From Akkermansia muciniphila (lineage in GTDB: Bacteria; Verrucomicrobiota; Verrucomicrobiia; Verrucomicrobiales; Akkermansiaceae), in assembly GCA_945883695.1 (NCBI GenBank), contig CAMCYK010000002.1, positions 5,676 through 69,675 of the forward strand: a stretch of 64,000 nt of DNA. Reading direction: 5' to 3'. Position 1 is the first letter of the stretch. Every line of letters starts with the position of its first letter. Of this stretch, positions 51,908 to 58,137 are shown piece after piece. The position numbers and the translations under genes were made by a program. A model generated the notes under the pieces. It was given only the letters and a program-made list of their open reading frames with translations. It did not search any database and was not told where the DNA came from.

Positions 51908-54302
51908 TTCTCCCCGCCTTCTCCAGCAGACTGAACAGCGACTCCACCGTTGCCGTCACCTTCTCCAGATCCTCCTCCTCGGAAAACACCGCGAACGTCA
52001 CCGACTTGCGCAGCTCCCGCAGCTCGGCATCGCTCTCCTTCCAGCCGGGATGCTTCGAGTCGGTGAAGCCGTGGACGATGAGCTTCAGCCAGCCCGGCAC
52101 CCGGTCTTCCATCTTCGCCTTGAACAGGGCCTTCAGCAGGCCGATGTCCTTCACGATCGCGTTGATCTCCGCGCTGTCGAAGGCCAGCGCCTTTTCCAAC
52201 TTGTCGAAGATGCCGACGAAATCGAGGACGAAGCCGTGTGGCTTCACTCGTGCGGGCATAGCAGCGCGAAGCCCCACCATCTCCTGCGCTTCGTTCTCGT
52301 AGGGCCGGTTCACCCGGGCGATGGCTTGCAGCAGCGTGTGATCGCGCATCGGCTTGTCCAGATACATCGCGTAGAGCACCGGCGCGTCGAAGCCGGTAAG
52401 CAGCTTTTCCGTCACGATCAGGATTTTCGGCATCTGGTCCAGCTTGCCGAAGCTCTTGCGGATCTGCCGTTCCTTCTTCGGGTCGAGGTGGAATTCCTTC
52501 AGCAGCTTCGAGTCGTTGTTGCTGCCGGTGTAAACGACCTCCGAATACTCCGGCGGCAGGAATTGATCGAGCGCCTTCTTGTAGTGCGCGCAGGCCTCGC
52601 GATCCACGCCGACGAGGAATGCCTTGTAGCCCAGCGGCTCCACGTTCTCCCGGTAGTGCTTCGCCACGAACTTCGCCACCTGCTGGATCCGCTGCTTCCC
52701 CTTCAGGAAGTTTTTGAGGTTCACCGCCCGCTCCAGGATCTTGTTGAGCTCCTCGATGTCCGCCACGCCCTCGGCTTCCGCCAGCGAGAGGAATTCCTGA
52801 TCCAGCGTCTCGTGCGGCACCAGCATCTCGTTCGGCGCGAGCTGGTAGTAGAGCGGCAGCGTGGTCCCGTCGCCGATGCTGTCCGCGATGGAATACTTGT
52901 GCAGGTAGCCCTCATCGTCATCCACGCCGAAGGTCTTGAAGGTCCCCTTGCCGAAGGCCGTCTTGTCCACCGGGGTGCCGGTGAAGCCGATGAAGGTCGC
53001 GTTCGGCAGACCGGCCATCAGGAAGTTCCCGAGATCGCCGCCGGTCGTCCGGTGCGCCTCGTCGATCAGCACATAGATGTTCTTCCGCAGGTTCAGGTCC
53101 GCCGGCATGTCGCGGAACTTGTGGATCATCGTCACGATGATGCCCCGGTAATCGTTCCTCAGCAGCTCGTTCAGCCGCCGGATGCTGCCGGCGTGTTCCA
53201 GATTCCCCAGCCCCAGCGCCGCCAGGTTCTTGAGCATCTGGTCTTCCAGCTCGTTGCGGTCGATCATCAGCAGGACCGTCGGCTTGTCCGCTGCCGCGGC
53301 GCGGAAAAGCATCTGCGCCGCCACGATCATCGTGAAAGTCTTGCCGCTGCCCTGCGTGTTCCACACCAGCCCGCGCGTCCGCAGCGGATCGAGCGCCCGG
53401 TCCACCACGCATTCCACGGCTTCCGTCTGGTGCTGGCGCAGGATGTATTTGTTCAGCTCCTCGTCCTTCTCCGCGAAGAGGATGTAGTCCTTCAGGAAGG
53501 CCAGCACCCGCGGGATGGTGCAGAAGCTCTTCACCTTCCACTCCAGATTCCCCAGCAAAGAAGCTTCAACCACGGAATTCACGGAACACACGGAATCAGA
53601 AATCCCACCTCCAAATCCCTTCCGTGTATTCCGGGTGTTCCGTGGTTCGACTTCTTCATTTTTCCACGCAAAAATATTCCGCCGCACCGTGTTCCAGGTC
53701 ACCCCGTAGGAAAACCCGATCGCATCCGTGGCGGTGAAAAGCTGGAGCGGCACGAAAACCTCCGGCGTCTCCTCGTGGTAGCGCCGGATCTGGTCGATCC
53801 CCAGCGCGATCCCTTCATCCTTCGTCGCGTTCTTGCACTCGGTCACCAGCACCGGGATGCCGTTGATGAGAAACACCACATCCTGCCGAGTCCCGTAGTG
53901 GCCGTTGTGATAGGCCCACTCCTCGGTCACTTCGTAAATGTTCCGCGCCGGATGCTCGTAATCGATCAGGATCAAGTCCCGCTCGCGCTTCTCCTCGTGG
54001 TCGAAGAACTTCCCCCGGTTCCGCAGGTGCTCCACGAATTCCCGGTTGCCGTAAATGTCCGAGTGCAAATGCCGGAACTTCCCGGGCAAGGCCCCCTCCG
54101 CCTCCGCGTAGCGCGGGTTGAACTTCAGCACTTGGGTGTGCAGCAGGTCTTCAAAAAATAAGGAGGGCGGACACTCTTGTCCGCCTTTCGTCTTCCCACG
54201 CCGCAATTCCGCTTCCTCCCTCGAAACCAAGCTCCACCCGATCTCCTGCGCATACGCGAGAATCCTGGCTTGGACGGTTTTGTGTTCGGTGGGCTTGCTC
54301 AT
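51897..54302 (-). CDS. hsdR: Type I restriction endonuclease subunit R
   Basis: Nuclease motif D-VVFLINGIP...ECK; helicase motifs QGSGKT, DEAHR, FTGTP, QAIARVNR. Contains in-frame inserts; C-terminus appears short. Confidence 0.92.
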   Translation of the reverse strand: MSKPTEHKTVQARILAYAQEIGWSLVSREEAELRRGKTKGGQECPPSLFFEDLLHTQVLKFNPRYAEAEGALPGKFRHLHSDIYGNREFVEHLRNRGKFFDHEEKRERDLILIDYEHPARNIYEVTEEWAYHNGHYGTRQDVVFLINGIPVLVTECKNATKDEGIALGIDQIRRYHEETPEVFVPLQLFTATDAIGFSYGVTWNTVRRNIFAWKNEEVEPRNTRNTRKGFGGGISDSVCSVNSVVEASLLGNLEWKVKSFCTIPRVLAFLKDYILFAEKDEELNKYILRQHQTEAVECVVDRALDPLRTRGLVWNTQGSGKTFTMIVAAQMLFRAAAADKPTVLLMIDRNELEDQMLKNLAALGLGNLEHAGSIRRLNELLRNDYRGIIVTMIHKFRDMPADLNLRKNIYVLIDEAHRTTGGDLGNFLMAGLPNATFIGFTGTPVDKTAFGKGTFKTFGVDDDEGYLHKYSIADSIGDGTTLPLYYQLAPNEMLVPHETLDQEFLSLAEAEGVADIEELNKILERAVNLKNFLKGKQRIQQVAKFVAKHYRENVEPLGYKAFLVGVDREACAHYKKALDQFLPPEYSEVVYTGSNNDSKLLKEFHLDPKKERQIRKSFGKLDQMPKILIVTEKLLTGFDAPVLYAMYLDKPMRDHTLLQAIARVNRPYENEAQEMVGLRAAMPARVKPHGFVLDFVGIFDKLEKALAFDSAEINAIVKDIGLLKALFKAKMEDRVPGWLKLIVHGFTDSKHPGWKESDAELRELRKSVTFAVFSEEEDLEKVTATVESLFSLLEKAGRSAK
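52244..52273 (-). repeat. 30-nt in-frame insertion in hsdR (GLRAAMPARV)
   Basis: ATG GTG [GGG CTT CGC GCT GCT ATG CCC GCA CGA GTG] AAG; aligns with the 33-nt element family with a 3-nt shorter spacer. Confidence 0.65.
53553..53648. repeat. 96-nt in-frame palindromic insertion in hsdR
   Basis: 28-nt arms 53568-53595 and 53620-53647 (24/28 complementary), built of CACGGAA units at 9-nt period; low-complexity 32-aa translation. Confidence 0.8.
54166..54185. repeat. REP-like palindrome inside hsdR 5' region
   Basis: GGCGGACA-CTCT-TGTCCGCC, perfect 8-bp arms; translated as GGQECPP. Confidence 0.7.
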
Positions 54303-54308
54303 TAGAAA

Positions 54309-54428
54309 ATTCTGGCTTGCATAAAGGCTCGTCCGGACGGATGGTCGCCTCGTTCTCCGCCAGTGGCAGTAGAACCAACAAAGGCCCCCGCAGAGCCAGC
54401 CTGGTCAAATCTGCGGTATTTTTTTGCC
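54309..54428. ncRNA. Candidate structured RNA between the 144-aa gene and hsdR
   Basis: Stems CCGCAGA/TCTGCGG (54388-94/54410-16), GTTCT/AGAAC enclosing CTGCC/GGCGG, palindrome CGTCCGGACG, T7 tract at 54419-25. Strand undetermined. Confidence 0.4.
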
Positions 54429-56686: not shown

Positions 56687-58001
56687 GGGCCAGCATCTTG
56701 AGGCTTTCGAAACTGCTCTCGAGCCGGGTCAGCTCCCCATCCGAACCCTGAATCCGTTCATGCGCTTCCCGAAGTTTCCTTTCGGCGGCAGTGAGATCAT
56801 CCTCCTCCAGCGCCTCCTCAATGTCGTCCAGCAGCTTGCGTGTCTCGGTGTCCCGCGACTCCGCATCCGGCATGACGTGGTCCAGGATCCAGTTCGAATC
56901 CACACCCAAGGAAATCCGCGGTTGGGTGATCTCTCCGGCTTGGGACATCAGGCGGATCTCGTCGGCAGGAACCTCGCCTATCACCTGCGGGGAATGCGTG
57001 GTTGCGACAAATTGCATCGCCGGGAACGTCTCCTTCAAATCCCCCACCACCCGCCGCTGCCATTTCGGATGCAGATGCACGTCCACCTCGTCGATCAAGA
57101 TCAGGCCCGGCGCATCCCTCAGCACCCGTGGCCAAGGCTCATCCTCGGGGCCCAGTTGATCGGCGGGGAGAAGAAAGGCGTTCTGCGTCACCGCCTTGAT
57201 GGCGATGTCGGCGATCAAGGCGACCATCATCCTTTGTCCCGCGCTCAGCAGGGAGAAGGGCTGCGCCGCGCCTTCGATCAGAAGCACGATCTCCGCGCGG
57301 TCTCCGTCGTACCACAGGTTTTCGCAATCGGGGATGCATCGGAGAACCGCCCGCTTCACTGCTTCATAGCCCGGTCTCCACGATCCCTTGCGATTGGCAA
57401 ACGCGATCGCTTCCCGCTGGAACCACGTCTGCAGGTCGCCCAAACGGATCCTCTCTTCGAAGCAATCGTAAAAGGCATCCCAGCGCCGCGCCGGCCCATT
57501 CGCTTTTGCCTTCTGACCCCTCGCACGCGAGGGCAACCAGGCCCGCCCCGCCCCGTAGTATCCGATCACCGGGCAAAGCACGTCCTCACCCGCTTCGTCC
57601 CTCGCATAGACTCCGGCCACCACATCCAGCGCTGCCTTGGCATCAGCACTCGTGGTCCGCGCCCCGTCCTTCCGAATCTGCCGGCACCACGCCACCGATT
57701 GCCCCGCGATCACACCCTCCGCTTGTATGGAAACAGGCTTCAGCTCCTTGAACTGGACCCGGTCGCCGACCTGTTCCGACACGAGCCGGATCTCCGCCGA
57801 CATGATGTTTCGACCGCTGTCCACCAACGTCGTATCCGGTGGCTTCACCAGCCACACACCCGCGGCCACCGCAAGCGCGTCGAGCAGGGTGGTTTTGCCC
57901 GCGCCATTGTCGCCCACCAACAGGGTGAACCGCGGGTGCAGTTCCAGCGTTTGCTGCTCGAAGCGCTTGAAGTTCTGGATCTCGATTCGGTCGATTCTCA
58001 T
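56673..58001 (-). CDS. ABC/SMC-like AAA ATPase, PtuA-like
   Basis: MRIDRIEIQNFK, Walker A GDNGAGKT, signature LSAGQR, Walker B/D-loop LIDEVDVHLHPKWQ, H-loop TTHSPQ. Confidence 0.88.
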   Translation of the reverse strand: MRIDRIEIQNFKRFEQQTLELHPRFTLLVGDNGAGKTTLLDALAVAAGVWLVKPPDTTLVDSGRNIMSAEIRLVSEQVGDRVQFKELKPVSIQAEGVIAGQSVAWCRQIRKDGARTTSADAKAALDVVAGVYARDEAGEDVLCPVIGYYGAGRAWLPSRARGQKAKANGPARRWDAFYDCFEERIRLGDLQTWFQREAIAFANRKGSWRPGYEAVKRAVLRCIPDCENLWYDGDRAEIVLLIEGAAQPFSLLSAGQRMMVALIADIAIKAVTQNAFLLPADQLGPEDEPWPRVLRDAPGLILIDEVDVHLHPKWQRRVVGDLKETFPAMQFVATTHSPQVIGEVPADEIRLMSQAGEITQPRISLGVDSNWILDHVMPDAESRDTETRKLLDDIEEALEEDDLTAAERKLREAHERIQGSDGELTRLESSFESLKMLAHEDN

Positions 58002-58137
58002 GCCACTCTTCCGGTGTATTCGTTACGTCAAAAATAGCTTCCAGGTCTCATTTCGGGAACGTAAATATCTGGGAATGACCCGCCGTCCGGACACTCTTCC
58101 GCTCGCGCTTCTCCTCGTGGTCGAAGAACTTCCCCCG

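Follow-up and report, generated by a model that had tools for sequence, protein, structure and literature searches.

Two truncated hsdR copies in an Akkermansia type I restriction-modification operon are scars of stacked defence cassettes, with ends in a preferred zone of the gene

Introduction

Defence genes embedded in type I restriction-modification (R-M) operons are established, as with TgvAB in Vibrio cholerae VPI-2 (PMC11411939), and the presence of genes within such operons, or within BREX and comparable ones, is used for discovering new defence systems. In the study of 'guilt by embedding' (Payne et al., bioRxiv 10.1101/2024.01.29.577857) pseudogenes were filtered out, and hsdR, truncation and recombination go unmentioned. 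Both papers cover what is embedded and not the joints, and the route of embedding is not described in the published embedding work examined; a literature search found no paper on relics of the hsdR 5' end. Scars left at the joints are a readable record of that route, and we describe here a locus in which such scars are preserved.

The locus lies in a 64,000-nt stretch of an Akkermansia muciniphila assembly (GenBank GCA_945883695.1, contig CAMCYK010000002.1, forward-strand positions 5,676 to 69,675), referred to at its full length as the window. It belongs to a type I R-M operon in which hsdM, hsdS and hsdR share a strand and are separated by other genes. The 5' end of hsdR is present in three copies on the minus strand, at 54302, 55940 and 58533, with no others in the 6.3-Mb assembly; the first of these begins the full-length gene, and the other two begin truncated copies that we refer to as relic b and relic c. 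An earlier note on this DNA had proposed that both relics break at the same site of about 15 nt, possibly with the help of a repetitive extragenic palindromic (REP) sequence or an HUH nuclease. We find that the two relics are pseudogene scars from defence cassettes stacked within the operon, and that relic ends prefer one zone of hsdR, codons ~88–125 and densest at 104–120, rather than one 15-nt site.

Results

Structure of the two relics

Along the minus strand the order is hsdS, a Ppl-like gene and a gene for a 271-aa protein, relic c, PtuAB, relic b, a PDC-M04 pair, and the full hsdR. The embedded genes are of known or candidate defence families (PtuA/PtuB, Ppl and PDC-M04A/B, by PADLOC), and every cargo is bracketed by copies of the hsdR head, which form a direct repeat of the target. 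The joins between cargo and hsdR are native stop/start overlaps: the stop codon of the 271-aa gene overlaps the start codon of relic c as ATGA, the PtuB stop overlaps the start of relic b as TGATG, and an Akkermansiaceae metagenome-assembled genome (locus L066) has the identical PtuB overlap, there onto a full hsdR. The PD-(D/E)xK nuclease residues of HsdR, placed at D141, E155 and K157 by alignment to EcoR124I HsdR (PDB 2w00/4be7, from residue 102), are missing from both relics, whose ends at codons 108 and 112 precede them.

Relic c (58099..58533, minus strand) comprises hsdR codons 1–108 and matches positions 1–345 of the nhmmer profile hidden Markov model (HMM), with its junction between 58099 and 58098. 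It agrees with every base of the full hsdR through GAGCGG (codon 108, window 58099) and diverges thereafter; alignment, nhmmer and direct reading of the junction all confirm the end after R108 that had been noted earlier. Its reading frame is open, and three small in-frame inserts (58387–58422, 58225–58261 and 58135–58171) are each single-copy.

Relic b (55673..55940, minus strand, junction past 55673) is composed of four pieces, namely hsdR codons 1–57 (55726–55940), a 33-nt in-frame insert with about codons 58–60 (55685–55725), a secondary deletion inside the head (about codons 61–108), and an island, ACTTGATCCTGA (55673–55684), which equals hsdR nt 326–337 and recurs as a 12-mer at 53966–77 in the full gene. 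The insert translates as NPSPPIGYAAA and is also present in P0114. Relic b ends at hsdR nt 337 (codon 112 and one further nt), and the two relic junctions are 13 nt apart. Taken alone, the 12-mer island has a shuffle p of about 0.24 against the family consensus and reaches significance only against the window's own hsdR copy; codon-109–112 islands were sought after other short relics and none was found above chance. However, a public open reading frame (ORF), P0027, has the relic b junction with undamaged flanking codons (...FFDHEEKRERDLIL/KRKRRLRGFPDAAFRP..., protein ...EEKRERDLIL/KRKRRLRGFPD, with the slash at the junction), which confirms nt 337 as the true end of relic b. The earlier assignment of its end to codons 109–112, near a 33-nt element, is upheld.

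The relic b junction is not confined to this genome. Together with the hairpin leader that follows it (55564..55672), the junction is common to four other genomes (L028, L045, L057 and L055), in which the leader is kept upstream of hsdR, and P0027 has the junction as well. The DUF3800 plus 144-aa gene pair that follows the leader in the window is lost in these four genomes, leaving a scar of about 60–80 nt (L028 7104–7181, L045 9081–9158, L057 2379–2462, L055 3912–3959) flanked by the hairpin leader and a conserved pre-hsdR segment of ~120 nt (window 54309–54428). In L203 and L204 the same DUF3800 cassette again follows a head relic, there with a junction past nt 342 and a 19-nt leader of unrelated sequence.

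Relic ends in other genomes

We searched about 1,380 Verrucomicrobiae genomes with HsdR residues 1–220 or the full protein, together with 80 metagenome loci, and mapped head copies at the retrieved loci with a DNA profile built from 13 full hsdR genes; further family scans brought few or no additional genomes. The ~30 loci with relics contain about 45 copies in all. Most are in the gap that separates hsdS from a full hsdR, where runs of two to four are frequent and defence-type cargo lies between successive relics. Some relic frames are open and many are frameshifted, and the relics are accordingly pseudogenes. Haloferula sargassicola (L025) has the order hsdM, hsdS, a four-gene cargo (a candidate QatABCD-like set, labelled by eye), a relic, an ATPase gene with a second gene, and hsdR.

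The survey yielded ~35 independent ends, 10 of which lie in nt 313–337 and 25 in nt 260–375, with none past nt 515 of the 2,403-nt gene; the absence of ends past nt 515 holds in unbiased sets of relics. Junctions are located at nt 313 (L061), 318 (L038), 324 (relic c and L030), 327 (L200), 328 (L025), 330 (L059), 333 (L031), 334 (L033b), 337 (the relic b type and L205) and 342 (L203), and the remainder are at nt 179–307 and 348–515. When the window's own two relics are excluded, 9/33 independent ends fall within 12 nt of the window junctions against 3.5 expected, with P = 0.006 for a null uniform over nt 160–520 and P = 3e-9 for one uniform over the whole gene. The proposal of a preferred site therefore survives in part: mapped across genomes, the ends are not scattered and they cluster near the window junctions, but they occupy a zone of ~35 codons, clustering is not confined to codons 108–112, and finer clustering inside nt 260–375 is not significant (P = 0.33).

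A second collection came from a search of 5.8 billion proteins (short ORFs only), which returned 948 head-like ORFs. Among the best 120 of these 948, homology to hsdR ends at codons 110–120 in 43 ORFs, at 121–130 in 14, at 131–142 in 27 (several of them frameshifts) and at 143–216 in 34, such that the peak is at codons 110–120 despite a score ranking that favours longer matches. That two unrelated truncations simply happened to fall 13 nt apart can be set against these data. The window has just two cases, and the 11-mer at relic c (described below) and the 12-mer at relic b are each weak alone; nonetheless, the P values from other genomes and the peak in the ORF set leave coincidence scarcely credible.

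The same ORFs raise the question of whether the relics are working stand-alone genes for an HsdR N-terminal domain, created by domain fission and ending at a domain border. Hundreds of open ORFs of about 115–135 aa exist, some in large clusters (P0078, for example, has 66 members), and alignments with EcoR124I and with distant HsdR paralogues begin only at residue ~102–110. However, many copies carry frameshifts, stops, internal deletions and accumulated inserts, and the frameshifts in particular argue that the relics are not a working gene family. The conserved tails of the ORFs are out-of-frame read-through into the start of DUF3800 (ERTHHEF = ...CATCATGAATTTTGA) or into a cassette leader, and Pfam HSDR_N is a single domain over residues 5–199; the predicted model of HsdR residues 1–260 is too poor to place a border (pLDDT 43.7). 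We therefore regard domain fission as very unlikely.

Junction partners and the sequence of the zone

The junction hot zone of the full hsdR, defined by junction positions and the HMM consensus, is AAGCGCGAGCGGGACTTGATCCTGATCGAT (53960..53990, minus strand; nt 313–343, codons 105–114). In the family consensus this zone contains (GCGCGA)2(CCTGAT)2, covering nt 315–338, with two GATC and two GCGC sites, the second GCGC being missing in the window's own copies. The post-junction sequences are mutually unrelated, and the junctions are thus separate events.

In two of the hot-zone relics the hsdR head runs in frame into the final ~22 codons of an hsdS gene, at nt 328 in L025 (...EKRERD/QFQDLFRTLLHELM...) and at nt 327 in L200 (...EKRERD/KLQELIRTLLHE...). 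Both junctions span AGCGCGAC, and an 8–9-nt microhomology, AGCGCGAC(C), is present in both parents: hsdR (GAGCGCGACC, codons 107–109, E-R-D) and many hsdS tails (AAGCGCGACC, K-R-D) share 8–9 nt there, and K-R-D occurs in 4/15 hsdS tails. A third hsdS-tail fusion, in L066, is at codon ~50. The L025 and L200 fusions via AGCGCGAC indicate illegitimate joining together with a crossover between homologous hsdR sequences. At the 3' end of hsdS the final ~60 nt (CAAGACCTCTTCCGCACCCTCCTTCACGAACTGATGACCGCGAAGACCCGCGT) hardly differ at DNA level among 15 loci, despite differing target-recognition domains, as is expected of a recombination arm.

A different explanation is that hsdR suffers a site-specific double-strand break around codons 105–114, or is cut there by a recombinase supplied in trans, after which the ends are trimmed and joined to donor-copied DNA. 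At least 12 junction types with varied partners lie in nt 313–343, a spread expected of end trimming; two unrelated cassettes, the NMRN type of L205 and the relic b type, share nt 337 as break point; an insertion sequence (IS) is present at nt 324/325 in genome G128; and the tract contains the GATC and GCGC sites. On the other hand, the examined arrays have no recurrent nuclease or integrase gene, many relic ends are outside the tract, and the window's copies are without the second GCGC. The tract 8-mers are not over-represented in the genome with the exception of CTGATCCT (470 copies against 344 expected, z = 6.8, rank 109 of 65,371), which may reflect coding bias. Taken together, these observations make a site-specific break quite unlikely.

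Three related ideas were not supported. Site-specific integration with an att core does not fit junctions that vary over nt 313–343 and beyond and with unrelated post-junction sequences. Chi-like over-representation of GCGCGACC is ruled out (z = -2.4). A homology boundary, in which alleles would be alike only to codon ~112, is contradicted by 17 full genes in which amino acid, nucleotide and synonymous-codon identity are level over 700 codons. No recombinase gene was found in the window cargo by Pfam or PADLOC, or among the precomputed Pfam matches of the L203, P0106 and P0107 contigs, and none was seen on reading the ORF translations of L025, where no family search was run.

Repeat elements and nucleases

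The mechanism suggested in the earlier note was a single preferred crossover site near GAGCGGGACTTGATCCTGA, possibly used with the assistance of a REP or an HUH (RAYT/IS200-type) nuclease. The 11-mer AAGAGTGTCCG lies immediately past the relic c junction (58088..58098, minus strand) and is the right half of a 20-nt palindrome in the full gene (GGCGGACAAGAGTGTCCGCC, 54166..54185, minus strand; in-frame translation GGQECPPS), which occupies a hypervariable site of the hsdR head at codons 36–50; both positions of the 11-nt match that had been noted, 58088–98 and 54168–78, are correct. A 7-bp hairpin is located behind relic b and a 15-bp inverted repeat behind the L030 junction, hsdR heads gather small palindromic inserts that keep the frame, and the genome has 28 matches to Y1_Tnp (PF01797), all of which would fit such assistance.

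Copy number argues otherwise. In the window the 11-mer is found twice where 0.05 matches are expected, but its 4 occurrences genome-wide against 2.4 expected are at chance frequency. The junction flanks and the in-frame inserts are single-copy in the genome by blastn-short, and are thus not the multi-copy elements that REPs would be; a k-mer copy profile was uninformative owing to the GC-rich background. The palindrome core, GACA[AG]GA[AG]TGTC, has 10 genome copies against 0.9 expected and is a low-copy motif, such that the 'REP-like' label is not sustained. A hairpin or cruciform at the site is also ruled out, as the single-stranded DNA of the junction site folds no better than shuffles (z from -0.35 to +1.45). 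Hairpins with a stem of at least 7 bp occur past 2/16 junctions, which is no enrichment over the 7.3% of background windows. None of the Y1_Tnp matches is on the window's contig (C2), and no link between them and the junctions was found; break points up to 30 nt apart with unrelated partners are likewise at odds with a single site. It appears that no repeat element or special nuclease is involved in relic formation, and REP/HUH assistance is highly improbable.

Many of the Y1_Tnp matches (for example C23:1489–1830) cover only model positions 5–62 and lie within open frames of 350–450 aa, which suggests that they belong to a fused or derived protein family. Motifs of the GGQECPPS type are also present in frame in the heads of L051, L055 and P0087. 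In L066, which is from a close relative, the native sequence upstream of PtuA is unrelated to the 98-nt leader of the window and does not supply the joining partner of relic c.

Other features of the locus

The operon genes from hsdS to hsdR are on the minus strand. The hsdS gene (62077..63285) encodes 402 aa (Pfam Methylase_S; PADLOC Specificity_I), and its conserved tail, the last ~60 nt, is matched by an S-tail HMM at 62075–62170; hsdM was located by tblastn past the window edge on the same contig (C2:70209–71813). Cargo 1 (58530..62053) comprises the Ppl-like PHP plus ATPase protein of 894 aa (59369–62053; Pfam PHP and AAA_21; PADLOC Ppl, E = 2.8e-30) and the 271-aa protein, which has no assigned function (58530–59345, from ORF coordinates). 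Cargo 2 is the Septu pair, PtuA of 442 aa (56673–58001; PADLOC PtuA, E = 2e-109) and PtuB, an HNH protein of 248 aa (55940–56686; PADLOC PtuB, E = 1e-46). The leader of the PDC-M04 cassette carries its 7-bp hairpin at 55633–55665 and is single-copy in its own genome. It is followed by cargo 3 (54430..55563), a candidate defence pair consisting of a 232-aa DUF3800 protein (54865–55563; Pfam DUF3800; PADLOC PDC-M04A, E = 3e-67) and its 144-aa partner (54430–54864; PADLOC PDC-M04B, E = 1e-55). The full-length hsdR (51897..54302) encodes 801 aa and has all of the HsdR domains by Pfam (HSDR_N, SWI2_SNF2, ResIII and T1R_D3-like). An Rfam scan of 50000–64000 gave no match.

An open frame at 63467–64000, a candidate RhuM/KilA-N-like gene by eye, runs past the window end and sits between hsdM and hsdS, which places cargo in the hsdM–hsdS gap as well; a close copy is upstream of an hsdS remnant in L059. 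The heads of hsdR, those of relics more than those of full genes, have gathered in-frame inserts of ~33 nt with translations such as PPSxFGFGG, PKGYGRTG and NPSPPIGYA. In the window they are at 58135–58171, 58225–58261, 58387–58422 and 55685–55725, others are in L032, L056 and P0114, and one insert type recurs at matching positions in different genomes. Full hsdR genes carry in-frame insertions of 6–25 residues right after DLILIDY, at codons 116–118 (L026, L055 and L040), and codons 217–250, which separate nuclease from motor, have large variable inserts. In L201 (G845:C10, 6738–6946) an internal deletion joins codon ~68 to codon ~651 (...RYADA/RDHTLRQAIARVNRPYENE...).

Discussion

The relics are scars of cassette stacking in the gap between hsdS and hsdR, and the wider account, with joins that combine illegitimate and homologous events, units that spread once formed, and ends that prefer a zone, is on balance probably right. 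Each cargo moves together with the hsdR start codon natively behind it. Upon arrival of a 'cargo + hsdR' segment the resident hsdR is severed within its first ~110 codons and leaves its head in place, the right-hand crossover being homologous and within hsdR and the left-hand joint illegitimate, with use of the 8–9-nt AGCGCGAC(C) where both parents are readable. This manner of joining is evident at two junctions and presumably applies to the others. The finished unit, 'relic – cargo – hsdR head', would be flanked by direct repeats and could move between genomes by ordinary homologous recombination, as the shared junctions suggest; movement of this kind would be the reason that the relic b junction recurs elsewhere.

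Two plausible causes of the zone carry about equal weight. The GC-rich tandem tract, (GCGCGA)2(CCTGAT)2, may be recombination-prone and also offers microhomology to hsdS. Alternatively, the zone may reflect a persistence filter, in which long homology arms spread better and longer direct repeats or partial nuclease domains get lost; the zone lies just ahead of the catalytic residues of the nuclease, which begin at D141. A bolder version of cassette stacking is that the hsdS tail and the first ~110 hsdR codons are built-in landing pads of an integron-like defence array that operates without an integrase, with the codons 105–113 tract as a true hot spot that sets the splice point. We consider this version unlikely; if it were correct, cassette capture would be a property of the operon sequence and not an accident.

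Several observations weigh against cassette stacking with a preferred zone of ends. In addition to the lack of significant finer clustering, 0/12 metagenomic relics adjoining full genes end within nt 313–337. The best 120 of the 948 ORFs were ranked by score, which under-samples short relics, and the ORF peak at codons 112–118 is largely one successful cassette, the DUF3800 'ERTHHEF' type; because this cassette dominates, the peak partly counts descent and not independent events. Longer truncated hsdR pseudogenes do exist, with ends at codons ~328 and ~481. A joining partner is identifiable in only 2 of ~19 hot-zone junction types, neither of them in the window. Finally, the IS in G128 (G128:C70, L040 13716–13859), a multicopy element with 13 copies mostly at contig ends, splits hsdR at nt 324/325, leaves codons 109–801 intact and has a separate head relic downstream. 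It hints at a mutational hot spot, which a persistence filter would not explain.

Stacking of cassettes with scars at their joints yields testable predictions for the growth of defence islands without mobile-element enzymes, and the hsdR-head relic provides a simple annotation marker for the borders of independent cassettes.

Comparison with known systems reveals partial likenesses, the closest in mechanism being long target duplication and homology-facilitated illegitimate recombination. DNA insertion linked to R-M genes and accompanied by a long target duplication has reportedly been described, and resembles the present arrays in that direct repeats of the target gene, a few hundred bp long, flank inserts with no transposase or integrase; here, by contrast, the 5' part of hsdR serves as the repeat in every case, the arrays are serial, and the repeat ends cluster. 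Homology-facilitated illegitimate recombination is said to occur in natural transformation, and its combination of a homologous anchor with a joint at short GC-rich microhomology is apparent at two hsdS-tail junctions, although most joints here are without an identified partner. Behind rhs and cdiA, serial displacement leaves orphan toxin/immunity modules, each a conserved-gene fragment with its cargo module; the hsdR relics are a mirror image, with 5' fragments upstream of the intact gene and defence cargo in place of toxin tips. The likeness to REP/RAYT systems is confined to short palindromes near two junctions and Y1_Tnp genes in the genome, and their copy number, junction recurrence and hairpin enrichment do not have counterparts here. 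There is also a resemblance to the embedded systems, such as PrrC in EcoprrI, TgvAB and the set of Payne and colleagues, in that Septu, Ppl-like and PDC-M04 genes occupy the hsdS–hsdR gap in the same orientation. What distinguishes the present locus from these is that hsdR-head and hsdS-tail scars mark the joints, and that they do so with a preferred zone.

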